Source: a virus (taxonomy: Duplodnaviria > Caudoviricetes). From it: a DNA stretch of 64,000 nt. Made by a program: the position numbers and the translations under genes. Positions 1,937-48,551 of this stretch are shown here, piece by piece. Numbering within the stretch: the first letter of the stretch is position 1; every line of letters begins with the position of its first letter. The stretch is from positions 1 through 64,000 of the IMG/VR virus record IMGVR_UViG_3300044898_000031; one strand, 5' to 3'. The notes under the pieces were generated by a model. It made no database searches and was not told the DNA's origin. It was given only the letters and a program-made list of their open reading frames with translations.

Positions 1937-1940
1937 TGAT

Positions 1941-5480: not shown

Positions 5481-6235
5481 GGTATAATATCTGATATAAA
5501 TAAGCATGCTTTATAAGACCAATGAAAACCGCTTGCGCTTTTATTATATCCTATAACAGAAAATATTCTTTTTCTTTTTATACCGGTTAAACTTTCTAAT
5601 TCCCATATATTTTTAAAGGAATTTATTAATTTATGGGTTTTTTTATCAAACTGATATATTCTTTTATGAGGCTTACTTGCTTGCCATATTGCTTGTCCAA
5701 GACGCATTTTAATACGGGATTCATCAGTATGTGATTTCCGCCACATATTATGCTTTTCTTTTTTTAACCCCTTTTTAAGATTGGTTTCTTTAGAATACTT
5801 TTTGCCGATTTGTCTCTGTCTATTAGCTTCTACAACGTCTTTCGACATTTTTTTTCCTAAAAGCCACGGTTTTGGGACTCCCTTCGTTCTTTCAGATCGT
5901 TTTCTTTTAGATTCTTCGGAATGTTTAAAACCAAGCATGCTGTTTGCAGTAGGACTTAAGTTGTAGCGAGGCTTAAAGAAATCAATCCATTTTTGTTCTG
6001 GAATAGTTAATTCAAATCTTGTTTTTGCCAATGGCAATTCTTCTATAATAGAAAATTCAAAATTCTCTTCACCGTGTTTATTCCATGAATTTTGAAGAAT
6101 TCTTGAATGATGCTTATTTGCTCTTAATAAATTTTTATGCTTCCAAATTCTACTATTTAAATTTACGGCTGACCCAATGTAAAAATCATTGCTTACTTTA
6201 TTTATAATGGCATAAATACAAGCTGTATCTATCAT
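5477..6235 (-). CDS. GIY-YIG homing endonuclease with NUMOD3-type repeats
   Basis: CIYAIINKVSNDFYIGSA; LGFKHSEESKRK and KSHTDESRIKM repeats. Confidence 0.9.
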   Translation of the reverse strand: MIDTACIYAIINKVSNDFYIGSAVNLNSRIWKHKNLLRANKHHSRILQNSWNKHGEENFEFSIIEELPLAKTRFELTIPEQKWIDFFKPRYNLSPTANSMLGFKHSEESKRKRSERTKGVPKPWLLGKKMSKDVVEANRQRQIGKKYSKETNLKKGLKKEKHNMWRKSHTDESRIKMRLGQAIWQASKPHKRIYQFDKKTHKLINSFKNIWELESLTGIKRKRIFSVIGYNKSASGFHWSYKACLFISDIIP

Positions 6236-6972
6236 TCTATAACCTCCTTATTAAAATTGGGATGATTATGCAATATTTTTGGTAATAAATTTTTATCAAA
6301 GTGAGTCGCTGACCAAAGCGACTCAGCTACAAGATGCAACCCTCCTTCAACTACATCTCCCGGTTTCCAATTCAAATACATATCTAACCAACCATCACGT
6401 ATCTCCGATTTATGACCGTGAACTTGTAATTTATAGCGCATCACCGCTTCACTTTGTGCAGTTGAAAAATGGTATACTTTACATGGGACTACGCCCTCTC
6501 CTCCACTGTTATGCAAATTAATATAGCGTATAGGGGTAAAACTGTCGTGACAGGCGTAATTAAACGACTTCCAAAAATTTATAAAACCGCCAAAGCCAAT
6601 ATACCGCTTGTCTGTTTTCGTACATAGGTCTAATGCAATAGATAAATCTATTGGGTCAAAAATCTCATCAGCGTCAAAAGCCAAAATCCCATCATATCCG
6701 TCTGCAAAATTTAAAATGTAATTACGGTGGTCGCCCTCTGTACCTGCATTTATTTTATACCATTCCACTTTTGGGCTCGCGGCTATCGCAATATCATGAA
6801 GTTCTGTTTCAGTCTCAGGGCAAATAGCATCCGTTCCAAATCCGTAACTGGGTTCATTAGTGTATAGGATAATGATACGCTCCACAAACGGTTCAACACT
6901 TTTTATGGCATATGACAGGTATTCTTTCCCGTATAAAAGCGGACAATAGGCGATTATGCGTGTGTTTTCCAT
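6232..6972 (-). CDS. Glycosyltransferase, GT-A-like
   Basis: YLSYAIKSV...DADE (DxD) motif. Confidence 0.7.
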   Translation of the reverse strand: MENTRIIAYCPLLYGKEYLSYAIKSVEPFVERIIILYTNEPSYGFGTDAICPETETELHDIAIAASPKVEWYKINAGTEGDHRNYILNFADGYDGILAFDADEIFDPIDLSIALDLCTKTDKRYIGFGGFINFWKSFNYACHDSFTPIRYINLHNSGGEGVVPCKVYHFSTAQSEAVMRYKLQVHGHKSEIRDGWLDMYLNWKPGDVVEGGLHLVAESLWSATHFDKNLLPKILHNHPNFNKEVIE

Positions 6973-7886
6973 AGAGATATTATATTGCTTGCCATGTGTG
7001 AAAAAGTATAGTTGTTTAAAGCCAATTGATGACCGTTTTCTCCAAAAATCATTAATAATTCTGCATCATTAATGATTTTATCAATTTCTGATTTTAACTC
7101 ATCAAGTGTATTCCAATAGTCTACCCTGCACAAGTTTCTTGAAAAATCAATTTCAATCCCTTTATATTGATGGCTTAACACACAGATACCACTCCCAAGC
7201 ATACGGAACATCCGATCACTGGTATACCTGTCGTAATCAAAGTGTGACAGGTTAATCCCGATCTTGGCGTTCCTGTAAATACAGGCCTCCCCATATTGGT
7301 CACCCATGTAATTACCGCTCTCAAATCCTCCCCACCCTGAACCGTACACACCGAAGTTATCCCCATAATGCATCTTTAGAAAAGATACCATTTGCTGCCT
7401 CATTTCAGATAAGGGAAAACCACCGCAGTTGTTCCCCATAAAAACTATTTCAGGTGAGGGGTATTTTTCACCATCGGGCTTATAAATTTCGGGATCATAT
7501 CCTATCTGTAAAAATTCTGACTGATAGCCCAACGCTCTCATTGTGGCTACATCTTCCTCATTTGAAAAGCAGGTTAAATCCACTCCCCAAGATTCCATAT
7601 CAATATAAAATTGCGGCAATGGACTTCTGCAATCTCCTGACCAGTTGATGGTATACGCGCCCGTTGCCTTTATCGCCTCAATAGAGGCTTGTGTGATGCC
7701 AGTGGCTTGTATTTGAATAAATACCAAGTCAGGGATAAAATAAGTCAATACATCGGCTATTCTGTGGTTTAAATCAGGTTCAGCAACTGATATTTCTAAA
7801 TATCCGTCACAAACCGTTCGCATCGCTTTAGTAAATCCGTTATCTTCGCCAACAGATGCCATGCACCCGATATAAAGTATATTCAT
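6954..7886 (-). CDS. Glycosyltransferase, CgeB/Glyco_trans_1_2-like (start revised to 7886)
   Basis: QIGYDPEIY, VFMGN, YRNAKIGINL, SDRMFRMLGSG motifs. Confidence 0.8.
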   Translation of the reverse strand: MNILYIGCMASVGEDNGFTKAMRTVCDGYLEISVAEPDLNHRIADVLTYFIPDLVFIQIQATGITQASIEAIKATGAYTINWSGDCRSPLPQFYIDMESWGVDLTCFSNEEDVATMRALGYQSEFLQIGYDPEIYKPDGEKYPSPEIVFMGNNCGGFPLSEMRQQMVSFLKMHYGDNFGVYGSGWGGFESGNYMGDQYGEACIYRNAKIGINLSHFDYDRYTSDRMFRMLGSGICVLSHQYKGIEIDFSRNLCRVDYWNTLDELKSEIDKIINDAELLMIFGENGHQLALNNYTFSHMASNIISLWKTHA

Positions 7887-8530
7887 AATGATGTAGGTTG
7901 AACAAGTAAATATGGGTGTGGTATCGGTTCTGTCCCATGCCATGCCCTGTGGTCGCCTTTATGCAGGTGATAGGTCTTCACCGTCCAGCTTGGGTTAGAT
8001 ATATTATACCCGGCTTTCTGAATCTCAAAAGCTAAACGGTTGTCAACACCGGGAGTTCCAATTTTAAAATTATAATTCCCCGGCTTTATACGGCCTCTAA
8101 AGCACCACGTATCCTGACTATCCGACCTATCCATAAAGGTTGCATCCTTAACCATTATATTACCAAACTTGACCATGTTATCGCTATTCATTTCCCACCT
8201 TGTCAATGCCCAGCAATCATTTTCAGTAAGCAATAATTTTATTATATCTATACCCTCCTCGTCAAAATAAATATCACTGTTTGCCACAATATTTATATCA
8301 TCATACCCCGTAACCTCATTTACCCAGTCAAATAACTGCTGCATTGTAGGACGGCTGTCTATCCATCTCATTGAGACATTTTTTTCAGGCATCGAAACAT
8401 TATGTGGCTTCATCTCATTCATAGCATAAATCATATCAATAAACTTACATGATTTGTTAATCAAATGAACATGATACAGTTCGTTTTCCCTGTCTGCATC
8501 ATAGTAATAAGTTGTGAATAGATTTACCAT
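7883..8530 (-). CDS. Conserved viral protein, possibly GT-A-like
   Basis: ANSDIYFD, WALTRW, SQDTWCF, GVDNRLA, YHLH motifs. Confidence 0.55.
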   Translation of the reverse strand: MVNLFTTYYYDADRENELYHVHLINKSCKFIDMIYAMNEMKPHNVSMPEKNVSMRWIDSRPTMQQLFDWVNEVTGYDDINIVANSDIYFDEEGIDIIKLLLTENDCWALTRWEMNSDNMVKFGNIMVKDATFMDRSDSQDTWCFRGRIKPGNYNFKIGTPGVDNRLAFEIQKAGYNISNPSWTVKTYHLHKGDHRAWHGTEPIPHPYLLVQPTSL

Positions 8531-8542
8531 ATAAAAAAGTTA

Positions 8543-8642
8543 TTCCCGGCAACCAAAAATTGAAATGCAGTGGCGAACGAACAGATGAAAATCTGGTGTA
8601 CCGGGAAATGTCTTTGCTTAATTATTTTCATCGTTCGTTCGC
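8543..8642 (-). ncRNA. Structured 5' leader (candidate H-type pseudoknot) of glycan operon
   Basis: 19-bp stem 8573-8592/8624-8642; loop segment 8594-8607 pairs with 8543-8555. Confidence 0.55.
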
Positions 8643-8647
8643 TTTGA

Positions 8648-8679
8648 TAAAGGTAAAAATCATAAGTGACATTACCAAA
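8648..8679 (-). promoter_or_regulatory. Bacteroidota primary-sigma promoter
   Basis: TTTG-N20-TACCTTTA. Confidence 0.6.
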
Positions 8680-8681
8680 TA

Positions 8682-8822
8682 CTAATTTTCTATTTTATTA
8701 AATTTGCCTATCCATTCTTCTTTTAATTCAGCAAGCGTTGATATATCAAAATTTACATCCCTTTGAACAGCGTCCAAATACGATTCCAATAATTCAAAAT
8801 ACAATTGTTTAAACTTTTCCAT
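8682..8822 (-). CDS. Small hypothetical protein (46 aa)
   Basis: MEKFKQLYFELLESYLDAVQRD...; A-rich initiation region. Confidence 0.4.
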   Translation of the reverse strand: MEKFKQLYFELLESYLDAVQRDVNFDISTLAELKEEWIGKFNKIEN

Positions 8823-8837
8823 GTTATTTTTAAAGAT

Positions 8838-8865
8838 AAAAAAACGGGTTCATTTCTGATCCCGT
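8838..8865 (-). terminator. Intrinsic terminator
   Basis: ACGGG...CCCGT stem followed by T run on minus strand. Confidence 0.5.
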
Positions 8866-8923
8866 CGGTGATGTTTTCTTTTCCTCCTGCCCTCAAAGAT
8901 GTCAATTTCTATAATCTCTATCT

Positions 8924-9175
8924 CTATGCAGCCGGGGTTGCGTTTGGGAGTAACAAGCTGATACCAGTATGGTTTTCAGGGTCACTGGCTAAAGCGTTAT
9001 TGATCGCTGTTGCCTGTTCGGCTGTCAAGGCTTCCAGTTGATTAATGAAGCTTACGTTTGCCAGTTCTGCCTGTGCCTCAGTAAGTGCTTCCTGATCGGT
9101 TTGTAAGGCTGTTGCCTCCTGCTGTACCTGTGCAGTAAGTGTGTCTACTTTGTTTTGAAGTGCGGTGCTATCCAT
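8924..9175 (-). CDS. Acidic Ala/Gln-rich coiled-coil protein
   Basis: Heptad-like composition; TACATTTG at 9190-9197 upstream. Confidence 0.6.
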   Translation of the reverse strand: MDSTALQNKVDTLTAQVQQEATALQTDQEALTEAQAELANVSFINQLEALTAEQATAINNALASDPENHTGISLLLPNATPAA

Positions 9176-9276
9176 GATTTTTTTTATTTCAAATGTAATT
9201 AGTTTTTACTTTAAAGTTATATCAATGATTTTTTTTAAATTAAACCGATTTTTAAGCCCGTAAATCAATTATATAT

Positions 9277-9522
9277 TCAAAGTTGATACATACTACCACC
9301 GTATGGGTTAAAGTGGCACTCGTGGTCTGTAATGAAGCCATACGGTATATTCAGCTTCCATTCACTTATCCGTTTAAACTGGTTCATATTATCAGAGAAT
9401 ATAAATTGTTCATTTGAATCAATCAGTTCCTTTACAATTTCAGTAACATCCCCGGCAGAAGTAATTACTGAAAACCATTTACCCGTTGGTACTGACTTTA
9501 ATTTTTTTATTGTTTCTATCAT
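9277..9522 (-). CDS. Hypothetical protein
   Basis: Directly follows primase-helicase in the operon. Confidence 0.55.
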   Translation of the reverse strand: MIETIKKLKSVPTGKWFSVITSAGDVTEIVKELIDSNEQFIFSDNMNQFKRISEWKLNIPYGFITDHECHFNPYGGSMYQL

Positions 9523-9525
9523 GGT

Positions 9526-11334
9526 TTAAAATGCTAATTCATTATTTTGTGAATTAATTGGGTCAAAATTGTAGTTTGGTAATAATTGCGTTGAAAACTC
9601 TATTTCTGATTGTGGCTCATCCGGCATTAGCCAATTTGCATTATCGTAATTATCCAATGAATTAAAACGGCTATTGTTCACATTATACCTAACTTCTACC
9701 ATCCCCTGATTTCCCAAATGGTTATACTTCATTTTCTGAACATGTATCTCACTCAATTCAGTTTCGTAATTCCTGTAAAATGTTATGCCAATGTCTGGTT
9801 TATTGAACCAGTTGCTTGATCCTGATATATCGTAAAGGTTTGGTATTTCAAATTGCCCTGTCTTTAAATTTTTCCTGATTTTTGTAGGATGAGCAATGAC
9901 TATTGAAAATATGCCGTGGCGCTGGCTGAACCTGATTATTTTATCCAGTTGTTTTGAAATGTAATTTGTTTCAGTGTCGCCTTTATCCTGATTATGCTCT
10001 AATTTATTCCAAGGGTCAAGCAAAAATCCCCTAACACCGTACTTAACGACTAAACTTTTTGCTTTTGATAAAATATTATCCAGTGTCACGTCATCATCTT
10101 CCGGCTCTATAAAAAAGAAGTGATCGTTTATAAATTCTTTTGCTACTAACTTTTCTTTATCGGTGAATCTAACGAATTTACGTACCCTTTTACCTATTAA
10201 ACATTCACATATAGTAACTAAAAACACAGCTAATGGCTTATGTTCAGGTGTAAACATTGCCCACTTATACCCGTGATTGACCGACAATGCACACATAATC
10301 TGCAAAGCAAATGGTGACTTTCCGTGATTTGGTATCCCTGTTAATACCATGAGGTGACCCGGATAAAATGAAACTAAATTATCAAACTCTTTCATATACC
10401 CGGTAGTATCTCCACGTGGCAATCCGTTTTCCATATAATTTTCAACCTCATCCCAAACATATTTGGCAGTAACTATACCAGAAATCGGAAATTCAATCAA
10501 ATTAGGCTCTCTAATCAATTCTTTTAATTCAGACGACCCTTTTGCTACCAATACTTCATTTGCGTCTTTAAACGATCCGAAATCAACCTTAAAACACCTT
10601 TCATACCCCACCCTACGTGCGAGTTCTTCCCTAAGTGCTATTCCCGGCTCATCATTATCCGTTGCCAATATTATTTTTGTCTTGTTATTGAAATAGTCCA
10701 CACAGTTATCCAAGTACTCCAAGTTGCAATTCCCTTTTGATGCGCCATTTGGGACTGAAATAACTTCTTTGATACCTGCTTCTGAAAATGAAAGTTTATC
10801 AATCTCTCCCTCTACGATCACACACCAGTCGCTTTCTTTAATGTCATCTAATCCATAAAAAACAAGTTCAGCATCTTTAACCATTTTGAAATGCTTTTTG
10901 CCGTCCCTGTATTTTACGTTTACCAACTGCCCGTCTCTGAAATAATTAAACTGAATAGTGTTTTCTTCTTTTTTTGTTTGAGGCATGTAAACCTTTCCCT
11001 CTGATAATTTAGCGTCAGACAATACTTTTTGAGATATACCGCGCTTAAAAAACCATTGCACTACTGCATCTGATAATTCGGTATTATTGACGTAAACAGG
11101 ACGGATATACTCTTTCACTTTTGGGATATATTCTTTCAATTCAAACACCTTACCTCTGAACTCGCAACCGGGATTATGGCAGTTGTAAACTCCATCGTCT
11201 AAATCGATACTAAGGCAAGGATCGTTTTTGTGTTTTCGTGAAGCACTACACTTAGGGCAGATAACTTTATCTGATCCTGCATTTCTTCTTGTAATTATAC
11301 CAAGTTCGGCAAACATTTCTTTTATAGCTTTCAT
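9526..11334 (-). CDS. Primase-helicase (Zn finger + TOPRIM + DnaB-like; T7 gp4/Twinkle type)
   Basis: CPKC...CHNPGC; IVEGEIDKLS; ATDNDEPG; Walker A GIPNHGKS; LLDPWNKL; AHPTK. Confidence 0.93.
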   Translation of the reverse strand: MKAIKEMFAELGIITRRNAGSDKVICPKCSASRKHKNDPCLSIDLDDGVYNCHNPGCEFRGKVFELKEYIPKVKEYIRPVYVNNTELSDAVVQWFFKRGISQKVLSDAKLSEGKVYMPQTKKEENTIQFNYFRDGQLVNVKYRDGKKHFKMVKDAELVFYGLDDIKESDWCVIVEGEIDKLSFSEAGIKEVISVPNGASKGNCNLEYLDNCVDYFNNKTKIILATDNDEPGIALREELARRVGYERCFKVDFGSFKDANEVLVAKGSSELKELIREPNLIEFPISGIVTAKYVWDEVENYMENGLPRGDTTGYMKEFDNLVSFYPGHLMVLTGIPNHGKSPFALQIMCALSVNHGYKWAMFTPEHKPLAVFLVTICECLIGKRVRKFVRFTDKEKLVAKEFINDHFFFIEPEDDDVTLDNILSKAKSLVVKYGVRGFLLDPWNKLEHNQDKGDTETNYISKQLDKIIRFSQRHGIFSIVIAHPTKIRKNLKTGQFEIPNLYDISGSSNWFNKPDIGITFYRNYETELSEIHVQKMKYNHLGNQGMVEVRYNVNNSRFNSLDNYDNANWLMPDEPQSEIEFSTQLLPNYNFDPINSQNNELAF

Positions 11335-20984: not shown

Positions 20985-21366
20985 ATGAAAAAATTACTAC
21001 TCCTGCCATCCCTGTTATTTGTTTTAACAGCTTCGGCACAAACAGCACAATACAAACGTATTGAAACAACTCATTTTAAAGGGGATAAATTGTCTTCTAA
21101 AGTTATCAATTACAAATCTGGAAATATTTCGATGGGAGACAGTTTTATCAATATCGAAGGATTAAAGAGTTTTACAATTGTTTCTAAGGGTCAAACGGAG
21201 GCCGAGGATGAAGGATATTATTCACGGACATTATTTGATCACTGAGACGACCAAAGGCTCGCTAAAGGCTTTAAAACCCGTTCTTTTTTGGTCGCCTAAA
21301 AATAAACTAGTAGATGTAGTGGTAAAGGACGGCCACCGAAATATTGATTATTGTTTAACCAATTAA
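20985..21366 (+). pseudogene. Signal-peptide protein split by an apparent 1-nt insertion
   Basis: MKKLLLLPSLLFVLTASA|Q; removing a T at ~21231 fuses ...YYSRT with YLITETTK... Confidence 0.55.
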
Positions 21367-37677: not shown

Positions 37678-38124
37678 TTAACTAATATACAAATTATATT
37701 CTGCCTTTCTCCTGTCAACCAAGTCCTGCAATATCTTACCATCTGCCTTGTTCCATGCATACCATGCTTTTTGCAAATCGCCCTGTTGTCCGTTGATGAT
37801 CTTAAGCAGCGTTGAACTCCGAAACCCGGAAGTTCCGATATTGTATACTAAACTAAACAATGCATCAAACTGATTTTGTTTAAGTATTGGCTTTGTCCAG
37901 TAAGCCACTGCATGGGAGTATTGTCCGGAAGTATTATTGAATAGTTCACGGGCGCGTTCTATGGTTATTGGCGGGTCGGTTATCTTTACATGTTCTCCAT
38001 TTTCGTAATACGTAGACCCGTAGCCGATAGTAGGTATGCCAACTTGGTCAAGGTATGGGTGTAGTACAAGCCCTTCTTGTTGTTTAATGAAGTTAAATCC
38101 TGCTTCGCTTAAAGTCGTTATCAT
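37678..38124 (-). CDS. Endolysin, GH24 lysozyme
   Basis: EGLVLHPYLDQVGIPTIGYG; QNQFDALFSLVYNIG; RRKAE. Confidence 0.93.
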   Translation of the reverse strand: MITTLSEAGFNFIKQQEGLVLHPYLDQVGIPTIGYGSTYYENGEHVKITDPPITIERARELFNNTSGQYSHAVAYWTKPILKQNQFDALFSLVYNIGTSGFRSSTLLKIINGQQGDLQKAWYAWNKADGKILQDLVDRRKAEYNLYIS

Positions 38125-38731: not shown

Positions 38732-40582
38732 TCAATAAACAATAATACCAAACTTACCGTCGATAATCACAAAGTGACTCTGCGCAGCAGGGCTTACGGC
38801 AAAAGTGATTGTATAATGCGAACTGCCACCCGTATTGGTTGCTGTAATCGTTACTGCTGTAGGGCTGTACACCGCAGTCGGCAAGCCCGATATAACACCT
38901 GTAGCGGCGTTTAAAGATAACCCCTGCGGTAATGCGACATCACTCGTATAGGATGTTGGGATACCACCCGTATTCGTTGGTGTCAGGGCAGTTATCCCCT
39001 GATTCTGAATATAAGCCACCATAGAAAGCGGGTAAGTGATATTTGGGGCAACTACCGGGATGGCATTTACTTTGATCGTTATAGGTACGCTACTGCTTCC
39101 TCCTCCATTTGTTGCGGTCGCTGTATAGGTAGTTAGCGGAGAGCTTGCCAGTGGAATACCTAATATTGTCCCATTAGCGAATATAAGCCCCGCAGAGAGA
39201 GCCGGCGAAATTGACCATGAAGTAACCGCACCACCTGTATTCGATGGATTTAAGGGGGTTATAGCCGTCCCTACTGTTGCGGTGAGCGTGTTGGGGGAAT
39301 AGGATATATTAGGAGGGACTATAACCGGAGCTTTAACAACAATTGTTAAAGGCACACTACTCGTACCGCCTGAGTTATGCGCCACCACAGTATAGGTAGC
39401 CGACACGGTGACAGCACCGGGTATCCCGCTAATAATCCCCGTTGTGCTATTGATGCTTAACCCCGAAGGGAGTGCAGGCGATACGGTGTAGTTTACGATT
39501 GCCCCGCCAAAGCTATTGGACACAATGCTTACTATCGGTAAGCCTACCGTAAACGAATAAGAGGTAGGGGAATAACTAATACTCGGCGGCGCGACTACAG
39601 GGGTGCATGCAGGCCATAGCGGGTTAGGCAGGATGGATGCGTTTAACGCAGTACTGGTGGTATTACTTGCCCAACCAGTAGGCGAGAAAGCCGTACTGGG
39701 GTCAAACCAGTAGTTAAACACGTTCCCGTTGGCTGCGTTACAGCGAACGTTATTGAACGCCATGGTAATATTATTTGACGGTTGTCCGGAATAATTACCA
39801 AATGCGATGCCTACTGAAGTGTAAGATGTTTGTGCTAAATAACCTGTGTTATAACTCATTTCAATAAACGTACCACCTTGCACCTGTGCGCACACACTGC
39901 CACAGTTCACAAATGTATTACTATCGCATCGTTGATATGAACCACCAACGTCCCCTCCAACCATGCCAACATAGCCTGTTCCCGGTGGATTATTAGAACC
40001 ATTTAAGCATTGATTTCTACAAGCCCGTATAGGACTTGCGGGAGTTCCATTACATTTATACAAAGAAAATTGGTCGCCTATTCCCGGGCCGCTCACGTCA
40101 TGATAGGATTTATTATCTAAAATCTGAATTGATGGCCCATTACACCCATTCAATTGAACCGAACTACCCCCTCCATCACTTGATGATGCTGTAACATTTG
40201 GATCAATAATATTATGGAAATAATTATACCAAATATGAATATTACTTGTATTACCTGTCGTTCCATTTATTCCACGCCAACCGGACTCAAAGAAACAAGT
40301 GTCTATTGTGATATTGTAACATCCTGAATTTATCCTTATCAACCCTGATAAAGCCGTACTATTTTTAATGATACATTTAGTAATGTGTACATCATGAACT
40401 CCCGCAGGAATGTTTATACCCACTGTAGCTGTGCCACCGAGGTCAATTGATTTTCCTGAAATAGTTGTGTTTGATGTTGCTGTGATTGCGCCGCTTGAGG
40501 TAAATGTTCCGCAACCGGGGACGGCTTGCGCCAAAGAGAACAAAGGTAAAATTGTGAGAAAGAACAGGATCAATCGTTTCAT
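38732..40582 (-). CDS. Secreted right-handed beta-helix protein with three putative Ig (He_PIG-like) domains
   Basis: MKRLILFFLTILPLFSLA|Q; N/G-rich parallel beta-helix; three ALP.GL....TG.ISG.P repeats. Confidence 0.8.
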   Translation of the reverse strand: MKRLILFFLTILPLFSLAQAVPGCGTFTSSGAITATSNTTISGKSIDLGGTATVGINIPAGVHDVHITKCIIKNSTALSGLIRINSGCYNITIDTCFFESGWRGINGTTGNTSNIHIWYNYFHNIIDPNVTASSSDGGGSSVQLNGCNGPSIQILDNKSYHDVSGPGIGDQFSLYKCNGTPASPIRACRNQCLNGSNNPPGTGYVGMVGGDVGGSYQRCDSNTFVNCGSVCAQVQGGTFIEMSYNTGYLAQTSYTSVGIAFGNYSGQPSNNITMAFNNVRCNAANGNVFNYWFDPSTAFSPTGWASNTTSTALNASILPNPLWPACTPVVAPPSISYSPTSYSFTVGLPIVSIVSNSFGGAIVNYTVSPALPSGLSINSTTGIISGIPGAVTVSATYTVVAHNSGGTSSVPLTIVVKAPVIVPPNISYSPNTLTATVGTAITPLNPSNTGGAVTSWSISPALSAGLIFANGTILGIPLASSPLTTYTATATNGGGSSSVPITIKVNAIPVVAPNITYPLSMVAYIQNQGITALTPTNTGGIPTSYTSDVALPQGLSLNAATGVISGLPTAVYSPTAVTITATNTGGSSHYTITFAVSPAAQSHFVIIDGKFGIIVY

Positions 40583-40637: not shown

Positions 40638-40919
40638 TTAAAACCTGTTATGAAAGCGGATATATTTCCAAAGGTATAGCATAACAATACACATCGGCAG
40701 GTTAAGAATTAATATCCGGATAAGAGCCGTTGCGTTCGGGGGCCATATCAAAAAGAAAATACCAGCGCCACCGTATACCCAGATTTTACAAACAAATAAG
40801 GCAATCAGCAACTTGCGTAACATCCCATTTTTAGAGCGGTAAAACTCGTATGCTATCCCGACCGACATCAGGCAGATAACAAGCATTACTATTTCAATTG
40901 CGATAAGGTTAAGGTTCAT
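40638..40919 (-). CDS. 3-TM membrane protein
   Basis: Hydropathy by eye; ATGA coupling. Confidence 0.7.
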   Translation of the reverse strand: MNLNLIAIEIVMLVICLMSVGIAYEFYRSKNGMLRKLLIALFVCKIWVYGGAGIFFLIWPPNATALIRILILNLPMCIVMLYLWKYIRFHNRF

Positions 40920-41173
40920 TTTCTGTTTTCTAACATGGTTTTTACTGCTGTTAACACATTGGTGTTATTGTTGGTTACTCTATTGCTTTCCTCAAATTGT
41001 CTTTCTATGGTCTTTTTCCAATCTGTGCGTTCATCTCTATGCTGCCGCTCCAGTTCTTCACGCTCCCGCTTATGGTCTTGAATAACGTCCTTGATGAACT
41101 TAACGCACCATCCTATAGCTCCTATAGCGATTGCTGCAATTACACCGGGGATGCCATACTTATCTAAATCCAT
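40916..41173 (-). CDS. Single-TM coiled-coil protein (BhlA/holin-like)
   Basis: YGIPGVIAAIAIGAIGW then charged helix. Confidence 0.65.
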   Translation of the reverse strand: MDLDKYGIPGVIAAIAIGAIGWCVKFIKDVIQDHKREREELERQHRDERTDWKKTIERQFEESNRVTNNNTNVLTAVKTMLENRK

Positions 41174-41229
41174 CCGAACTTTATTTTTGCTTCAATTATT
41201 ACAGTTGCTGACAAGTATTTTCATTTGAT

Positions 41230-41529
41230 TTATCTTTTCATATCCCTATAAATATCTGTAATTTGTTTTCTGATGCCTTTCTGTTCATCCCTTAAATCCT
41301 TGATGTCATCTCTGATATTAGAGATTGCTAAAGTAACAGATTCGTTTACTACGCTTTTTATAAACTCCTCTTTCTCTAACCTTAATAATCTATTGGCCTC
41401 TGTTTTTTGCTGCTTAAGGTATTTAAAATACTGGTCAACGCCCCAGCCAAAGCCAAACACGCCGCTTACGCAAGCGGTAATCCATTTAAATAAAGCGATC
41501 CAATCCGGTTCAGGTGGTGGTATTGCCAT
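41230..41529 (-). CDS. Single-TM coiled-coil protein (holin-like; start revised)
   Basis: WIALFKWITACVSGVFGFGW then charged helix. Confidence 0.6.
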   Translation of the reverse strand: MAIPPPEPDWIALFKWITACVSGVFGFGWGVDQYFKYLKQQKTEANRLLRLEKEEFIKSVVNESVTLAISNIRDDIKDLRDEQKGIRKQITDIYRDMKR

Positions 41530-41536
41530 TTTGTTT

Positions 41537-41974
41537 TTAATCTGATAGTAAGTCATGTCTTGATCCGCTTATTAGTATTAACAGGGTTACAATAAACGTA
41601 CCGATATTTAAAGCTAAAAAATAAACATAAGGGTCACTAATTTTGCCGAAATAAACTCCTGTAATCAGGACGTAAGTTAAAACAATGGCTACTTTAAAGC
41701 AATTTAATATTTGCCTTTGAATAAAATGCCTTACGCCCATAAACTCAAAAATAAAAACAGAGCTAATGCCTAACCCCATAATCGCATTACGCCACTTATC
41801 TTTAAACCAGATACACTCCATCATGTCCATTTTAACAGTGGCAAGTATATAGTAAAAACGAGTTATGCTTACAGAAAATATCAGCAGGCACAAGCAGGTA
41901 ACCCCGGTTAAGGAGAATACATTCTTGCCTATCTTTATTATCCAGTCAATAAGTGATCCTATAAAAAGTTTCAT
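41537..41974 (-). CDS. 4-5 TM membrane protein (start revised)
   Basis: Hydropathy; ATGA overlap with 66-aa peptide. Confidence 0.65.
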   Translation of the reverse strand: MKLFIGSLIDWIIKIGKNVFSLTGVTCLCLLIFSVSITRFYYILATVKMDMMECIWFKDKWRNAIMGLGISSVFIFEFMGVRHFIQRQILNCFKVAIVLTYVLITGVYFGKISDPYVYFLALNIGTFIVTLLILISGSRHDLLSD

Positions 41975-42171
41975 GCGGCGGGTATCCATACACATGCACC
42001 GTTTGAGCATACCCAATAGCCGTTAGTTGTTTTACCAGGGCCTGAACATGCCGGGTTGCATGTGGTGCTAACCTCAGGGTGAACGATACCGAATTGGTCT
42101 CTTGTAACATAGCCTGCTACGGTGGCGAATGTTTCTGGTGATAATGTTTGTAAGTAATCTTTGATTTCCAT
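41971..42171 (-). CDS. 66-aa peptide with 4-Cys C-terminus
   Basis: TTCNPACSGPGKTTNGYWVCSNGACVWIP. Confidence 0.6.
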   Translation of the reverse strand: MEIKDYLQTLSPETFATVAGYVTRDQFGIVHPEVSTTCNPACSGPGKTTNGYWVCSNGACVWIPAA

Positions 42172-42189: not shown

Positions 42190-42564
42190 TTAATTCTGTT
42201 TTGCCAGCCGTTTAGTATTTAAAAAAATCCAGGTATATAGCTTTGTTTGTAAAGCCGTCCATTTTGAGTAAACACTTGCGGGCATATCCTTTTTCACGGT
42301 GGTTAATAGCGAACCTGATTTATCATAATACCTTAGCTCTAACTGAATGTTTATGGTGGTATCACTGGTTATGTGCGCTAATATATCTACAGAACGCACT
42401 GAATCCCCTAAGGCATTTGCGGGGATATTAACAATCTCCTGCCCGTATTTAGGCATCCAAAGCGAATCATTTAAAGTCAGGTTCTTAGACTTTACTTTAA
42501 TCATTGTTTGTGCATTTGCGCCGATAGCTGCTATCAGGAGCAAAAAGGTTAAGTATTTTTTCAT
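42190..42564 (-). CDS. Signal-peptide protein in tail-fibre cassette
   Basis: MKKYLTFLLLIAAIGANA|Q; DSL, DSV, DTT sequons. Confidence 0.75.
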   Translation of the reverse strand: MKKYLTFLLLIAAIGANAQTMIKVKSKNLTLNDSLWMPKYGQEIVNIPANALGDSVRSVDILAHITSDTTINIQLELRYYDKSGSLLTTVKKDMPASVYSKWTALQTKLYTWIFLNTKRLAKQN

Positions 42565-43004
42565 CTGTAATCTCCTAATAAAGTTATTCTTAAATTTAAT
42601 GTGCTGCCTGTTACCGTTGCCGCCGTCACCTTAACAAATATGCCTGTATTCGCAGGAACTGACGTTGCTATTGTTGCCAGTGTCGGGTACATGATACTAT
42701 TTAGCGTGTACAAGCTAGTTAAGGTTGTTGCGGGTACTATGTTATTGTAATTGGGGCTGTTAGTACCCACCGATACAATGGCAGGAACAGTAAGTACGGT
42801 AACATTACTGCTCATTATCTCACAAACAGCCAAAAGCGGATAAAACATCTCTGTCCCATTTTCGGTCGTCCCTATCTGTGTGGATGCGGAGGAAAGCAAA
42901 CTGATGTTCGTTTTAGGGAACCGCTCCAATGGCCTGTTCCCCGCGCCCTGTGCGAAAAGTAATGCGGGTGAAAGTAATAAAAATAATAAGATAAGATTTT
43001 TCAT
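42561..43004 (-). CDS. Signal-peptide beta-sandwich-like protein in tail-fibre cassette
   Basis: MKNLILLFLLLSPALLFA|Q; S/T/V-rich. Confidence 0.75.
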   Translation of the reverse strand: MKNLILLFLLLSPALLFAQGAGNRPLERFPKTNISLLSSASTQIGTTENGTEMFYPLLAVCEIMSSNVTVLTVPAIVSVGTNSPNYNNIVPATTLTSLYTLNSIMYPTLATIATSVPANTGIFVKVTAATVTGSTLNLRITLLGDYR

Positions 43005-43006
43005 AT

Positions 43007-46000
43007 TTAATAAGTAAAAAAGTTTCCGGATGAAGCAACATAATAAACCCTTATGTTGCCATAATTTGTATTGATTGTTTTACTTGATGCACCGTCAATA
43101 GTTTTACCTGAAGGTGCATTTATAGTGATATTGTTTGTTCCTGCTGTTCCAGCCTCATCTTTGATGATTTGCTGTTGCTGATCTGTCAGCGCGATTAAGG
43201 TAACGGTACGGGCGGCTGTAAGTGACGTGTACGAAATCAGGTAGTCGGTCGATAAGGCGGTGTATGCAACGTCCGAAACGGTAGTTCGGCTGTTCAGATA
43301 ATTAGTGCTGTTTACACTCACTAAGTTCTTGTTTGCGTCTGTGCCTACAAGTTTTGAAGCTGTGAGTCCGTCCAAGTGAAATGCTCCTGTTCCGATCCAT
43401 GCTGAAAAATTATTAACCCCGGTAGCCACCGCATTCCCCACGTATAACGAAGCTGTATTAGTTACCGAACCTGTTCCTACCAGTGTAATTGTGCCGAGTG
43501 GGTTAGCTACAACAGTTGCGGCCCATGGTACAGTTGTGGCTGTTCCTACCTGAAATGGTGTTGAGCCGAATATAGCGTTTGAATAAGTAGTGCCATTTGC
43601 AACAAGTGAGTTAGTATTACCGTTAAATAGAACTCTATAATTATTGGTTGCTGCACCGGCATATATAGCACCTGTTGATGTAGTTGTTGTGGTAGATGTG
43701 CCCCCGTTCGCATTAAAATTAGCTGTACCCCCTGAAGCGGTGAATATACCCTGATTACCTTGTATAAAACCTCCTATAATGCTTCCGTTTGTGGTGAAAG
43801 TCCCACTATTTGTAAGTGTTAGCGAACCTGAATTATCCAAAACCATTCTTGTAGTATATGACGGCGTACTTGATGAACCCCTTGAGGATGCCCATGTAAG
43901 TGTGGTGGTTGGTGCTGCCCCGCTTGTTACATCAGCATATTGTATCCAGTCGGCATAATTATCGGCAGCCGTTGTGGTGGTATTCCATACATGCGCACCC
44001 AAATGAAGTGATGGCGATATTTGTCTTGGTACGCCTGATGTGGATAGTGTATTATTTTGCAAGAAAAGCGCATCCGTTGGAGTAATGACGATGTTGTTTT
44101 GCTGAAAGGTATTTAACCCTGTCCATATATTGGCTGCTGTTAAGGAAACACCCTCATTGTAATCCACCCACCAGCTTGCTGCGGTTGTACCACTTGTTAA
44201 GATACACGTAAATACAGCAGATGACCCGGCAGGCATAATACGCACCGTGTTACCTCCAGATGATTGCACCGTAACCACTCCTGTACTTGAATTTTTTATA
44301 GATATGGAATAGTTAAACACCAATGTTGATGCTACAGGCAGTACGCATGTTTGTGTTGTTGTGCCTGTAAATATTGTTTTATTTGGAGAGCCTACCGTAA
44401 GGGTGGTTGTCCCGGCTGCTGTAGCTATACTTTGCCCGTTTTGAATTAGGTTGTTAATTGTTGAGTTGGCATTAGCATCACGGGAAACAATAGTACTTGC
44501 AGTGGCAGCATTGGTAGCATCGGTAGTGATCGTAACTGCTGCTGACCCATTATAAGATGAACCTCCGGATGTAAGATGTGTGTCAAATGTCAGTGCATTA
44601 AGATTTGACCCTAATGATACGCCGCTAATGGTTGAGTTGACTAAACCAGCGTTTGGTAATCCTGTAGCATTGGCAAGTGTTAATGATGCCGGAGTTCCAA
44701 ATACACCACCGTTGGGAATAGTCACCGTCCCTGTGAAAGTTGGCGAAGCGATGTTGGCCTTTAAAGTAATATTACTTGTGTTGGTAGCAATATTGGTGGT
44801 ATTGGTTGTAATCCGTCCACTCAAATTATTATAATCAGTCAACGCCCCTGCTTTGCTTTTTAAAACTGTAGTATCCGCGCTGATAGTCCTATTTGCCGAA
44901 AGGTCGCCAATGGTTTGCATACCTAATCCTGCTGTTAAAGTGCGGGTTGTTGGAACATAACCATTAAACTTGGTTTGAAGTGCTGAAAGTGAGTAACTAT
45001 TTGCTACGGTTCTGAATACTGCACTGTCGACTTTTGGTGCTGCATCGCTTCGCATGAACGTAACAGCAGAACCATTTACAGCCGAAGTCCCTGCTGTTGC
45101 TGTCGGATTAGCACCCGTAGGAACTGTAACCCCGCTTACCGCATTATCTACATACGTCTTAACTGCATTTTGAGTTGGGTATAGTGTATTGCTTGTTCCT
45201 AAAGTAGTAGTAGTTGATTTATTGGCGACTTTCTCTAACAAAGCCTCGAATGTGCTTGATATATCAATTACAGGCGTTGCACCTCCTGTAGAAGTAATTC
45301 GGTTAGTTGTTCCTGAAACAGAGGTGACACCCGATGAAATAGTCCCCTTAACACTATCTGCTTTGGCTTTGGCGGTACTGTCTGTATATGATTTGTTTAC
45401 TAAGCTGTTTCCCCAATATAAGGCATGATTAACACCCGATATTTCAATTCCATTGTGAGTAGTATTATCAATGCCCTGAATAGCCGAATGAAAACCTACG
45501 CGCGGTGTCGTCTCTATAAATATGGCAACCTGATGCGATATGTCTTTATTTTGAATAATATCAAACCTGTCATTACCAATATTTACATCGGTATAATTTG
45601 CTGAATCCCGGCTGCCTGATGGATTGTCCCCGGTTACAAAATGATAACCTGAATACGAGCCGTAATTATGAAAATCAAACAGGTTTCCGTTCAGGTCTAA
45701 ATCAAAGTTACCAGTTAGTGTACCGCCCAAGTTAACTGTACTATCCCCGATTGCTGTTGTACCGCTTCCGTCAACAATATGCGAACCGCCTCCACCGCTA
45801 CCAGTTCCCACGTTCCCACCCGCATCAACTACTAACGAAGTGCCCCCCGTTATCGCTGGCAAGTCCAGTATTGTCATGCCACCTTTTACTTTTAACGCCC
45901 CGTTAACCCCTGCGCCTGTTGCCGGGCCTGTAATATTTACGGTATAGGCTGAATCTATTGTTGCCCCGCCTATATTAATAATATGCAGTGGTTTTATTGC

Positions 46001-47185
46001 TATTTGGTTGAACATGGAATAGCTCCCACCAGCCGCAGCAGTCACGTCCTGATTGCCGATAATAAACCCGGAATAATCCGTGCCTGATAAGGGGTTGGCA
46101 GAAGTTGACCCCCGCATAAATGCCCGGTAAGCTACTGTGCTATGGTCTGATATTAATAGCTTTGGATTGGTACTTGTATTTACCCCGCTCCCAAATACGG
46201 CAAAGTCGGATGACTCCCTCGCGCCGGGGTTGGACTGGTAAACGCCTTCAAGTGGTGTGCCAATTATAGGCCCTGTAAAAGCAAGCGTATCGCCGTGTTG
46301 ATGTACAGTTACGTTTGACCTGAAATTCAATGGCAGAAAAGGTAAAACCAATGTGTCCACCTTTAGCGTATCATTACTCGTCCGTAGTCCGAAGCCGATA
46401 TGCGCCGTATGTGCGGTCAGTGTATCCTTTAAAGCTGTTTGGGTAACTACATTTATCGTATCCACTGAAAATACATTAGCGGATAATTTCAGCCCGAACC
46501 CGGCATTATAAATCGCCTGATTACTGAAAAAAAGGTTTCCTGCCCCGTCCGTTTGTATTACCTGCCCGCTCAGCCCGTCGTTTGCCGGGAGGATATATTT
46601 TCCTCCAATAGTAAGCGTGTCTGTCCTTAATGACCTCACCCACGGCGTAGCGGTATTTTGCTGTATTAAGGGGTTAGCAAGAACAAACTGATTGATTGGC
46701 CCGGGTGGGATTATTATTGTACCCGTAGGAGTGATTAACACAGCCCCTGCGCGAAGGTCGCCATGCGGTATACTTGGCTCTACCGGATTAGGAGAAAGTA
46801 TCCCTACGGCGATGTGAATGCCGTTATTGGCACTGTCGGCATAAACCGTCTCATACCGTGAGTAAACACTGTCTCTTGGTTGCAGGGTAAAGTTGGCAGG
46901 AGATGATAAAGTATATACCGTATTACTGATATTCCAACTCCCTGCGCTTACAGTTAGCGTCGAGCCGGATACCGAAAGATTAAGACCTGATAATATTTGA
47001 TTATATGATTGGTATTGCCCAAAATCAAAGTACTGGTATGTTAAACCATTAAACATCCATCTATGATGGGTTGACTGGTCATAATACATGGTTGCCTGTG
47101 GCATTTGTACAGGCTGCAATGGCTTTGTTTGTGACTTAACTAAAAACGGGCACAACAATAAAAAGTATAAAAGTAATTTTTTCAT
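43007..47185 (-). CDS. Tail fibre/adhesin with Sec signal peptide (start revised to 47185; 1392 aa)
   Basis: MKKLLLYFLLLCPFLVKS|Q; G/S/T-rich fibre repeats (SVSGTTNRIT, YPTQNAVKTYVD, LKANIASPTFTG, GTPASLTLANATGLP); C-terminal TIDG..SKTINTNYG domain; ATGA overlap. Confidence 0.8.
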   Translation of the reverse strand: MKKLLLYFLLLCPFLVKSQTKPLQPVQMPQATMYYDQSTHHRWMFNGLTYQYFDFGQYQSYNQILSGLNLSVSGSTLTVSAGSWNISNTVYTLSSPANFTLQPRDSVYSRYETVYADSANNGIHIAVGILSPNPVEPSIPHGDLRAGAVLITPTGTIIIPPGPINQFVLANPLIQQNTATPWVRSLRTDTLTIGGKYILPANDGLSGQVIQTDGAGNLFFSNQAIYNAGFGLKLSANVFSVDTINVVTQTALKDTLTAHTAHIGFGLRTSNDTLKVDTLVLPFLPLNFRSNVTVHQHGDTLAFTGPIIGTPLEGVYQSNPGARESSDFAVFGSGVNTSTNPKLLISDHSTVAYRAFMRGSTSANPLSGTDYSGFIIGNQDVTAAAGGSYSMFNQIAIKPLHIINIGGATIDSAYTVNITGPATGAGVNGALKVKGGMTILDLPAITGGTSLVVDAGGNVGTGSGGGGSHIVDGSGTTAIGDSTVNLGGTLTGNFDLDLNGNLFDFHNYGSYSGYHFVTGDNPSGSRDSANYTDVNIGNDRFDIIQNKDISHQVAIFIETTPRVGFHSAIQGIDNTTHNGIEISGVNHALYWGNSLVNKSYTDSTAKAKADSVKGTISSGVTSVSGTTNRITSTGGATPVIDISSTFEALLEKVANKSTTTTLGTSNTLYPTQNAVKTYVDNAVSGVTVPTGANPTATAGTSAVNGSAVTFMRSDAAPKVDSAVFRTVANSYSLSALQTKFNGYVPTTRTLTAGLGMQTIGDLSANRTISADTTVLKSKAGALTDYNNLSGRITTNTTNIATNTSNITLKANIASPTFTGTVTIPNGGVFGTPASLTLANATGLPNAGLVNSTISGVSLGSNLNALTFDTHLTSGGSSYNGSAAVTITTDATNAATASTIVSRDANANSTINNLIQNGQSIATAAGTTTLTVGSPNKTIFTGTTTQTCVLPVASTLVFNYSISIKNSSTGVVTVQSSGGNTVRIMPAGSSAVFTCILTSGTTAASWWVDYNEGVSLTAANIWTGLNTFQQNNIVITPTDALFLQNNTLSTSGVPRQISPSLHLGAHVWNTTTTAADNYADWIQYADVTSGAAPTTTLTWASSRGSSSTPSYTTRMVLDNSGSLTLTNSGTFTTNGSIIGGFIQGNQGIFTASGGTANFNANGGTSTTTTTSTGAIYAGAATNNYRVLFNGNTNSLVANGTTYSNAIFGSTPFQVGTATTVPWAATVVANPLGTITLVGTGSVTNTASLYVGNAVATGVNNFSAWIGTGAFHLDGLTASKLVGTDANKNLVSVNSTNYLNSRTTVSDVAYTALSTDYLISYTSLTAARTVTLIALTDQQQQIIKDEAGTAGTNNITINAPSGKTIDGASSKTINTNYGNIRVYYVASSGNFFTY

Positions 47186-47760
47186 GATATGATAAAGCCG
47201 CTTATTTGAATATAGCCTGTAGTCGGTATAGGATATGTCCATGTGTAACTGTCTGGCAGGTTTATATCGCTGTCAATATTAATGATGGTAGGCACTGTTG
47301 CGGTATCCTGTGTATACGTTCCATCGCCGTTGGATACCCATATAGATATATCAGGGAAGTTTCCATACAAGATAGAATAGGTAGCTTGATAGCCCGATAA
47401 TGAAATGGTAGTTTGTGCATTAAATAGTATCCTTGTTGCATTGGCCGTGACATCTTGGGTGATAACAATTGAATTTGGCGGCGGTTGGTAATTCTCGTCT
47501 ATCTCATTCAGTGTGGGGTCCAGCCCTATTTTTTCACTCAGACAGATATAAACGGCTACCGCTTCACTTGAATTATAATCACCCATATTAAACTGCCTGC
47601 TCAATGCCTGTATATTAAGGTAATATTCTTGTGCTTCTTTCCAACTGACAGACCCCAATGGTGCTCCTTTAGTCAATTTTACACGGTTATCCTCAACTAA
47701 ATTCGCCATAATCAGTTGAGCCGTGAGTATCGTATTTTGTACCTGATCCTGTGTTATCAT
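47182..47760 (-). CDS. Putative tail hub/fibre-attachment protein
   Basis: Position between ejection genes and fibre; no signal peptide. Confidence 0.5.
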   Translation of the reverse strand: MITQDQVQNTILTAQLIMANLVEDNRVKLTKGAPLGSVSWKEAQEYYLNIQALSRQFNMGDYNSSEAVAVYICLSEKIGLDPTLNEIDENYQPPPNSIVITQDVTANATRILFNAQTTISLSGYQATYSILYGNFPDISIWVSNGDGTYTQDTATVPTIINIDSDINLPDSYTWTYPIPTTGYIQISGFIIS

Positions 47761-48212
47761 GGGTTCAAATAAGTATTTGCTGCTACAATATTATTTTGTG
47801 CCAAAATGCTTAACCCTGCCAAGGCATAGCGTAAAGCTGCCGCTAAAAATAGTTCACCTATTGAAAGTTCCTGAAATGTTTCATGTGAACAGTTACAGGA
47901 GCACCCTACTTTACTGATGATATTTAAAAAAGTGGCACTATAAATACCTATCGCTAAATAGTCCCTTATTTTTTCATAACTGCCGTTATTGTCTATCACG
48001 TCAAGCTTAAACCGAAACCATGCATCTGCCGTAATGCCATAATTTGCGGTCAGGCTTGTACCCATATTGATCTGCGTTAGCTCGTTGCCTAATGCATCGT
48101 AGATAGTCAGCATACGGCTTGTTACTGTGCCGTACCCTGTTCCGGTATCCGTGGCTGTCAGGGTTTTCCCGTCAAGGGATGATGATATTGAAAGTCCTAT
48201 TACTGCTGACAT
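47757..48212 (-). CDS. Putative tail hub/adaptor protein
   Basis: Beta-rich N-terminus plus helical C-terminus with CSCNC; synteny. Confidence 0.5.
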   Translation of the reverse strand: MSAVIGLSISSSLDGKTLTATDTGTGYGTVTSRMLTIYDALGNELTQINMGTSLTANYGITADAWFRFKLDVIDNNGSYEKIRDYLAIGIYSATFLNIISKVGCSCNCSHETFQELSIGELFLAAALRYALAGLSILAQNNIVAANTYLNP

Positions 48213-48215
48213 AAC

Positions 48216-48551
48216 TTATGCTTTTTGGTATTGTAAAAGACTGTAATCTGCAAAAGATGGCGGAACAAGAACATTTATAAGCAACGTATCGCCATTGGCT
48301 AATCCGCCCGGAAGCGTTGTCCACGTAATGGTATAAACGGTCAATCCGGCTACTGTAGTTTTGGCAACGGTAGCACTATCCATAGGAATAGTGAGTGCTG
48401 CGGTAACATCATATATGCTTACTATTGACCCCGGAACACCAGTACTAAGATTTATTTTAAGTCCGCTCTGAATACCGTTTATCACCAGCTTTCCGTTGCC
48501 GGGGGTAAACGTGTATGTGTACGGATTTTGTTTACTAATCTGAATAACCAT
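48216..48551 (-). CDS. Putative tail structural protein
   Basis: YTFTPG motif; beta-rich; synteny. Confidence 0.5.
   Translation of the reverse strand: MVIQISKQNPYTYTFTPGNGKLVINGIQSGLKINLSTGVPGSIVSIYDVTAALTIPMDSATVAKTTVAGLTVYTITWTTLPGGLANGDTLLINVLVPPSFADYSLLQYQKA

Follow-up and report, generated by a model that had tools for sequence, protein, structure and literature searches.

The DNA considered here is a window of 64,000 nucleotides (64 kb), the first part of a 76,528-bp (76.5-kb) record of an uncultured tailed virus, IMGVR_UViG_3300044898_000031. This study concerns three adjoining late genes on its minus strand, at 42190 to 47185, which code for a fibre-like protein of 1392 amino acids (aa) and for two small proteins of 147 and 124 aa, each of them beginning with a putative Sec leader. 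The late operon occupies the minus strand from ~76.5 kb down to 37.4 kb. Its first part codes for terminase (721 aa), portal (844 aa), a capsid-like structural protein (514 aa) and a 1285-aa structural protein. These are followed by proteins of 267, 578 and 2088 aa, which may correspond to internal core proteins, and by a trio of leaderless proteins of 111, 151 and 192 aa. The operon ends with the 1392-aa fibre, the 147-aa and 124-aa proteins, small membrane proteins, a 616-aa He_PIG protein and an endolysin. The fibre gene itself lies at the end of the tail module, where podovirus fibre genes sit. The features of the three-gene cassette are as follows.

43007..47185, minus strand: precursor of a 1392-aa fibre-like, putative receptor-binding protein (leader, anchoring module, mosaic shaft and tip), the open reading frame (ORF) being taken from an MKK start.
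47132..47185, minus strand: predicted signal peptide of the fibre, aa 1-18, MKKLLLYFLLLCPFLVKS, with Gln19 at +1 (heuristic scan and homologue conservation).
46706..47017, minus strand: predicted shoulder-type (baseplate-anchoring) beta domain of the fibre, aa ~57-160 (AlphaFold2 and fold comparison).
43010..43288, minus strand: C-terminal tip of the fibre, aa ~1300-1392, with the motif ..IDG...I...YG..RVYY..G.FFTY, common to the fibres of two other loci, L011 and L014.
42561..43004, minus strand: 147-aa small beta protein, predicted to be exported, leader aa 1-18, Gln19; candidate tip-specific partner of the fibre.
42190..42564, minus strand: 124-aa protein, predicted to be exported, leader aa 1-18, Gln19, with three conserved O-glycosylation motifs.

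The N-termini agree fully with those quoted in an earlier, sequence-only reading of this stretch: the genes open with the leaders MKKLLLYFLLLCPFLVKS, MKNLILLFLLLSPALLFA and MKKYLTFLLLIAAIGANA, each followed by Gln. The tight spacing noted in that reading was also found: the stop codon of the 192-aa gene overlaps the fibre start (ATGA), only 2 bases separate the fibre gene from the 147-aa gene, and another ATGA overlap joins the 147-aa and 124-aa genes, an arrangement typical of translational coupling. Because the fibre frame is open for 19 codons further upstream, to 47242, the leader might be the artefact of a wrong start codon, or the hydrophobic N-termini might have arisen by chance. However, the MKK start is the conserved one, the homologues beginning at this codon with the same ATGA overlap, and an upstream start would still give an N-terminal hydrophobic signal, only with a longer n-region. 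Moreover, when every ORF and every start of the 76.5-kb genome was scanned with our own heuristic for n-, h- and c-regions, five plausible leaders were obtained in real genes, those for the fibre, the 147-aa protein, the 124-aa protein, the 616-aa He_PIG protein (38732-40582) and an 86-aa protein (20985-21245). All five leaders are 18 aa long and are followed by Gln (5/5), which far exceeds chance, as the frequency of Gln is ~4%. An artefact is, on these grounds, scarcely credible.

By the same heuristic, a basic n-region, a hydrophobic h-region and small residues at -3/-1 are present in the fibre leader and in 40/40 of its leader-class relatives. Gln at +1 is the mark of the Q-rule of Bacteroidota, in which substrates of signal peptidase I expose a Gln that is expected to become pyroglutamate (PMC5837995, PMC10653852). 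The proposal that every protein of the cassette has a Q-rule leader is true for this phage, although the 147-aa family also occurs without a leader elsewhere.

Twenty homologues of the fibre were found, with mosaic similarity, and a leader followed by Gln is present in 18/20. Of the two exceptions, P0017 results from truncation of the gene call, and P0020, which is distant, genuinely lacks a leader. A profile of fibre residues 1-330, run against 1.84 billion representative proteins, gave 1484 matches; among them, all of the ~30 proteins that match the whole N-module carry leader and Gln, two seeming exceptions being gene calls that start inside the leader. The homologues are alike over residues 1 to ~260-300, beyond which shuffled modules diverge, and such a combination of a shared N-terminus with shuffled distal modules is how host-range fibres evolve. 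We also read ten related loci, on phage contigs that reach ~76 kb at most. In 10/10 of these, the leaderless trio is followed, among fibre- or spike-sized genes, only by genes with leader and Gln: the fibre, a pectate-lyase-like protein (in 6 loci), sometimes more fibre-sized proteins and, further on, a homologue of the 616-aa protein. A survey of related phages for conserved signal peptides, which had been suggested as a check, came out in favor of the prediction, with leader and Gln kept across the homologues and the ten loci. Judging from these alignments, the leader is a conserved, selected feature.

Relatives of the N-module were absent from 185,579 prokaryote species (one genome each), and the module occurs only on phage contigs; it is phage gear and not a family of cellular adhesins. 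Searches of the fibre against Pfam, PHROG, NCBIfam and PDB sequences returned no match. Thus, the "typical fibre repeats" that had been ascribed to it correspond to no known family, although the protein is indeed a mosaic of modules common to many fibre-like proteins. Its C-terminal tip is common to other small phage fibres: a leader-bearing fibre of 336 aa in L011 ends in a stretch with 52% identity to it, and aa 1264-1381 are 39% identical to a fibre fragment in L014.

What follows the leader was examined by structure prediction. An AlphaFold2 monomer of residues 19-330 has a mean predicted local distance difference test (pLDDT) score of 53 and contains one confident beta domain, at aa ~59-153 (pLDDT 75-88), within the stretch of aa ~57-160 listed above. 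In an exhaustive structural comparison of this N-module model with 48,161 solved chains, the ten best rows (Z 4.9-7.2) were all of one kind, with unrelated rows at Z 4.1 or less. They comprised SPP1 gp22, the tropism determinant Mtd of BPP-1, the HFTV1 fibre, that of cyanophage A-1(L), the lactococcal receptor-binding proteins (phages 1358 and p2) and TssK, a baseplate protein of type VI secretion. All except gp22 match through their own N-terminal domain; gp22 is small and was matched over most of its length. An independent ranking by Foldseek placed the same fold set first, with none at E<0.001 (best E at least 0.007), and the fold matches to shoulder domains share 6-18% identity. In known receptor-binding proteins, the shoulder domain fastens the trimer to the baseplate. 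By sequence, the domain was detected in 71 proteins, 40 of them leader-bearing and 31 of them leaderless fibre-like proteins with ordinary phage-fibre N-termini. On this model, the leader of the fibre precedes an N-terminal domain of virion-anchoring type and does not stand in its place.

A separate line of evidence concerns the compartment in which these proteins mature. In Bacteroidota, proteins outside the cytoplasm receive O-glycans in the periplasm, at D-(S/T)-(A/L/V/I/M/T), a motif that is enriched in such proteins (PMC12871550). The mature fibre contains 15 motifs, versus 6.6 expected from its composition (ratio of observed to expected (O/E) 2.3, p = 0.0005), and the 124-aa protein contains 3, versus 0.5 expected (O/E 6). 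In contrast, 17 leaderless late proteins of the same phage, pooled, contain 22 motifs versus ~27 expected, and the 2088-aa leaderless protein contains 1 versus 5.9 expected. Among fibre homologues, the enrichment is 1.9- to 3.4-fold in all leader-bearing ones but P0021 (O/E 0.19), which has only ~40 residues in common with the fibre, while a leaderless homologue has an O/E of 0.91. Similarly, in the shoulder-domain set, the O/E is 2.52 in the 40 leader-bearing proteins versus 0.79 in the 31 leaderless ones. Control motifs (Glu or Asn for Asp, a reversed motif, or a non-hydrophobic third residue) gave O/E values of 0.56-0.95 in the leader class.

These results bear on the possibility that the hydrophobic N-terminus is not used for export at all, and that the fibre is assembled in the cytoplasm, the segment serving as a buried tail helix or being cut by some other protease. 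Tailed-phage assembly is, in the textbook view, wholly cytoplasmic, so that such a route would be the ordinary one, and Sec capacity late in infection may be limited. Apparent "signal peptides" of Porphyromonas gingivalis phage capsids have been ascribed to cleavage by a prohead protease (PMC10367356). Nonetheless, a buried helix would be expected to keep its sequence, and it is only the n/h/c pattern, the small residues at -1/-3 and the Gln at +1 that are conserved. An enrichment of an extracytoplasmic glycosylation motif in the leader class only would likewise be unexpected for a cytoplasmic protein, and one relative encodes a SecB-family protein. We therefore regard an unused leader as improbable. 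Export of the cassette to the periplasm, as had been proposed, is well supported by sequence comparison, given the conservation of the leader despite reshuffled distal modules, the near-universal Gln at +1 and the restriction of motif enrichment to leader-bearing relatives.

The SecB-family protein just mentioned has 146 aa and is encoded at 21768-22208 of L002, a related phage on an NCBI MAG contig of 72.8 kb (PF02556, 47.5 bits, cut-off 26). A phage-borne export chaperone of the SecB type would fit heavy use of the Sec pathway. No member of the SecB family was found in the 76.5-kb genome studied here.

We propose, with a probability of roughly 0.55, that the 1392-aa protein is the receptor-binding tail fibre of this phage, that it matures in the periplasm, and that it attaches to particles from the cytoplasm after the holin has opened the inner membrane. 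The anchor-type domain, the position of the gene where podovirus fibre genes sit, the lack of a leaderless fibre candidate anywhere in the genome and a proteomic precedent in analogous proteins of Cellulophaga phages all fit this proposal; for the incorporation into virions that the sequence-only reading had considered, such support is indirect. Under the proposal, the protein would be made as a Sec pre-protein and would cross the inner membrane late in infection, whereupon signal peptidase I would cut off the 18-residue leader and a host glutaminyl cyclase would cyclise the new N-terminal Gln in accordance with the Bacteroidota Q-rule. The fibre would be O-glycosylated at D-(S/T)-(A/I/L/V/M/T) motifs and would fold in the periplasm alongside the 147-aa and 124-aa proteins, exported with it. 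Fibreless particles in the cytoplasm would meet the mature fibres when the holin opens the inner membrane, and the fibres would dock via the shoulder-type domain after the leader, possibly onto the leaderless 111-, 151- and 192-aa proteins. The processing of the protein (cleavage, cyclisation and glycosylation), its docking partner, and when and where it is attached are inferred.

The other fate that had been suggested for the cassette proteins, display on the surface of the infected or lysogenic cell, found no support. It is unlikely because neither a C-terminal sorting domain of the type IX secretion system (T9SS) nor a lipobox is present. A T9SS domain of type A or B was not detected at Pfam E<=0.01 or NCBIfam E<=1 in the fibre, the 147-aa protein or the 616-aa protein; the 124-aa protein gave only a chance peptidase-T row at NCBIfam E<=1. 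With respect to a lipobox of the T5 Llp/Cor type, the residue that follows the leader in the 147-aa and 124-aa proteins is Gln instead of the Cys of a lipobox.

Alternatively, the proteins might be exported but never enter the virion, acting instead in the envelope of the infected cell. They could mask or destroy receptors (for superinfection exclusion or for protection of progeny from debris), loosen surface polysaccharide for release, or serve as free enzymes or adhesins at lysis. A role outside the particle would suit proteins that have been exported, since these do not normally come into contact with particles in the cytoplasm. It would also suit the site of the 616-aa beta-helix gene, which has holin-like genes on one side and the endolysin gene on the other, and the leader-bearing pectate-lyase-like enzymes of relatives. 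T5-like phages encode receptor-blocking lipoproteins adjoining their receptor-binding genes, and a 60-aa lipoprotein gene that takes the slot of the 147-aa gene in L007 recalls them. In addition, phages of P. gingivalis encode five Q-rule proteins of unknown function, which are thought to modify the host surface (PMC10367356). On the other hand, such a role would leave the phage without a receptor-binding protein. Neither does it account well for the N-terminal domain, which is of anchor type and stands at the head of leaderless phage fibres too, for a modular, tip-swapping evolution that marks a host-range determinant, or for the annotation of the analogous phi18:3 and phi10:1 proteins from tandem mass spectrometry (MS/MS) of virions; and the lack of a T9SS C-terminal domain or lipobox leaves no evident way to the surface. 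We consider a solely non-virion role unlikely, although it has a better claim to attention than an unused leader.

Several points nevertheless weigh against a fibre that matures in the periplasm and joins the virion. The MS/MS precedent comes from analogues, not homologues, and purified virions can carry co-purifying secreted proteins. The fold match is of middling strength, with Z at most 7.2, and comes from a monomer model with a mean pLDDT of 53. As regards glycosylation, the contrast between leader-bearing and leaderless proteins may reflect host phylum instead of compartment, and the 616-aa exported protein is devoid of O-glycosylation motifs. In L013, a leaderless member of the 147-aa family lies beside a leader-bearing protein, so that the co-variation of leaders is imperfect. 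For this phage itself, cleavage, export, glycosylation and virion incorporation are all predicted from sequence and model.

The two small proteins of the cassette are candidate partners of the fibre. The 147-aa protein is a member of a phage family of small beta proteins with the core IGTTENGT..SIGTNSPNYNNI..VPANTGIYVK. A gene of this family follows fibres with the same tip in 3 loci (here, L011 and L014), a distribution that fits a tip-specific chaperone or accessory of the fibre. For the 124-aa family, 13 homologues were found, and in 9/9 of those fetched the leader is retained, as are Gln at +1 and three motifs (DSI, DTV/DTA and DTT/DST); a homologue lies downstream of the fibre in L007, L016 and L020. 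Neither protein matched a tail-fibre chaperone (Tfa or gp38-like) in Pfam, PHROG or NCBIfam, a PDB sequence search gave nothing usable, and their atlas neighbours are viral hypothetical proteins only. When the leader of the fibre was compared with that of the next small protein, both were present here and in L011, neither in L012 and only the first in L013, L014 being undecidable. This mixed result was not counted as support. The lipoprotein in the 147-aa slot of L007 (9548-9730) has the leader MRKYIIIITGLLVILFGC followed by S and the lipobox LFGC, and the fibre of that locus has a different tip; the lipoprotein could be a receptor-blocking one or a different tip partner.

The remaining features that surround the cassette or share its leader type are listed below.

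47182..47760, minus strand: 192-aa leaderless protein, directly upstream of the fibre; candidate virion-side adaptor.
47757..48551, minus strand: 151-aa and 111-aa leaderless proteins, which complete the syntenic trio.
40638..42171, minus strand: small membrane proteins (66, 159, 108, 85 and 93 aa), with hydrophobic segments in their translations, between the fibre cassette and the 616-aa gene.
38732..40582, minus strand: 616-aa beta-helix / He_PIG Ig-repeat protein, predicted to be exported, with leader, Gln19 and 13 Cys (Pfam He_PIG, E=7.5e-21).
37678..38124, minus strand: 148-aa endolysin (PHROG 7 endolysin, E=7.6e-39).
20985-21245, plus strand: 86-aa protein with the leader MKKLLLLPSLLFVLTASA before QTAQ, in the early/middle region on the other strand.

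The genes at 47182-48551 had been described as hub-like and as lacking signal peptides. Leaders are indeed missing from them, but the hub-like character is not borne out by any Pfam or PHROG match, and the trio as a whole (111, 151 and 192 aa) gave no match of use in Pfam, PHROG, NCBIfam or PDB sequence searches. The 192-aa gene is conserved in 10/10 related loci. Its product is modelled with three helices in the N-terminal part, followed by a disordered linker and by a beta domain of good confidence at the C-terminus; fold searches returned generic three-helix bundles only, with no Foldseek match at E<0.001. A C-terminal extension of ~70 residues occurs in this family in exactly the 6 loci that have the extra leader-bearing pectate-lyase-like gene, the other 4 loci being without both. 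This pattern fits an adaptor role, although the two features are adjacent in the DNA, so that linkage alone could explain it. In L006, a leaderless 535-aa GDSL esterase (8397-10004) has an N-terminus that resembles, by eye, the ~110-aa protein of the trio (111 aa here, 48216-48551). If that likeness holds, the ~110-aa protein might be a free copy of a virion-binding domain.

Leader-bearing homologues of the 616-aa protein, of 610-799 aa, are present in 7 related loci, and three Cys are invariant among five aligned sequences, this one included. The membrane-protein cluster at 40638..42171 probably contains holin or lysis-control genes, a role suggested by its hydrophobic products and setting, and relatives have small transmembrane proteins at the syntenic site. 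In relatives, the stretch of small membrane-protein genes that separates the fibre gene from the He_PIG gene also encodes stand-alone response-regulator receiver proteins (PF00072, 130-138 aa; L004:15486-15902, L005:15572-15964, L006:14113-14523 and L016:13047-13439).

The 1285-aa protein shares 26% identity with structural proteins of two Cellulophaga podoviruses, phi18:3 and phi38:1, and of phages of Flavobacterium, on which basis the record is a distant uncultured relative of the ~72-kb short-tailed Bacteroidota phages. A Bacteroidota host is suggested by the Q-rule, by the motif enrichment and by these nearest cultured relatives, which are Cellulophaga and Flavobacterium phages. A phage collection searched with the cassette and the fibre, as DNA and as protein, gave zero matches, and matches to the Bacteroidota promoter consensus (TTTG..TAnnTTTG) were no commoner than chance, with zero inside the cassette. 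Homing-endonuclease genes sit within the structural and transferase operons, at 63906-64427 (HNH), 1941-2516 (HNH_3+HTH_7) and 5477-6235 (GIY-YIG+NUMOD3). The transferase block, at 17-8530, contains Pfam matches to Glyco_trans_1_2 (6954-7943), a hexapeptide acetyltransferase (4460-4945) and DUF5672 (4938-5507), with HNH and GIY-YIG homing endonucleases interspersed and 4 ORFs without a Pfam match. The block might remodel a glycan on exported proteins.

More tentatively, and at somewhat less than even odds, tailed Bacteroidota phages may employ a two-compartment assembly, in which heads and tails are built in the cytoplasm, and Sec-exported, pyroglutamate-capped, O-glycosylated receptor-binding fibres, along with their partners, are fastened only when the holin breaches the inner membrane. 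Under this scheme, the transferases encoded at 17-8530 may be the phage's own means of remodelling the fibre glycan, and the host-recognition surface of the virion would be a host-type glycoprotein. If fibres do pass through the periplasm, then an assembly step would be added that relies on host Sec, signal peptidase, glutaminyl cyclase and perhaps O-glycosylation, and this export machinery would supply host factors of phage infectivity that were not considered before. Such a route could also explain why fibres of this kind may misfold when expressed without the leader or in Escherichia coli, and Bacteroidota phages, gut and soil lineages included, might bear a glycan-coated recognition surface. 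Cultured Cellulophaga phages and their published virion proteomes make the question directly addressable.

The shoulder domains of p2 (2wzp), 1358 (4l92), HFTV1 (9h5b), A-1(L) (8kec) and TssK have a fold like that predicted for aa ~57-155 of the fibre, in which the domain likewise lies at the start of the mature protein. However, those proteins have no leader, their synthesis and assembly being cytoplasmic, and the likeness is one of fold only. The fibre family shows the same motif enrichment as the non-cytoplasmic substrates of the general O-glycosylation system of Bacteroidota, although no phage virion protein is listed among the known substrates (PMC12871550) and glycosylation of the fibre is predicted from motifs. 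Known Q-rule substrates resemble the cassette proteins in having a tripartite Sec leader, small residues at -1/-3 and Gln at +1 (PMC5837995, PMC10653852, PMC10367356), but they are cellular envelope or phage accessory proteins, with none described as a tail fibre or virion part.

A literature search for exported tail fibres found nothing relevant. The mosaic adhesive trimer (MAT) fibres of Bdellovibrio bacteriovorus, nonetheless, have a signal peptide, a conserved beta-rich N-domain, a phage-fibre-like mosaic shaft and swappable tips (PMC10769870). The layout predicted for the fibre described here is similar, and the MAT case shows that export of phage-like fibres, with folding beyond the cytoplasm, is feasible. 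MAT fibres differ in being encoded by chromosomal genes of the predator (with a shared ~130-aa N-domain) and in residing on its own surface, whereas the present fibre belongs to a phage structural operon.

The closest parallel is with cultured Cellulophaga phages. The proteins gp085-gp087 of phi18:3 (NC_021794) and gp091-gp094 of phi10:1 (NC_021802) have leaders of 17-20 aa followed by Gln, for example ..ISFGYS before QVL and ..ISGVSA before QTV, and they are labelled structural in their GenBank records "based on experimental MS/MS proteomics analysis", a statement taken from the record notes alone. No comment on the leaders was found in those records or in searchable papers. Like the cassette proteins, they are fibre-, tail- or pectate-lyase-type late proteins adjoining lysis genes, and the structural module of phi18:3 is distantly homologous to that of this phage. 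Beyond the leaders, however, no homology to the cassette proteins is detectable, so that the two sets are analogues, and the Cellulophaga proteins have few O-glycosylation motifs (0-3 each). A contrasting case is phi38:1, in which the fibres are leaderless with a common MARIKNT.. N-terminus. The three-gene cassette of the podovirus phi18:3 (gp085-087, L022:4892-10584) is related to gp092-094 of the siphovirus phi10:1 (L009:12888-17392), gp086 and gp093 being 83% identical over the first 118 residues, leader included. Because the cassettes of a podovirus and a siphovirus are thus related, the putatively exported kit moves between tail types.

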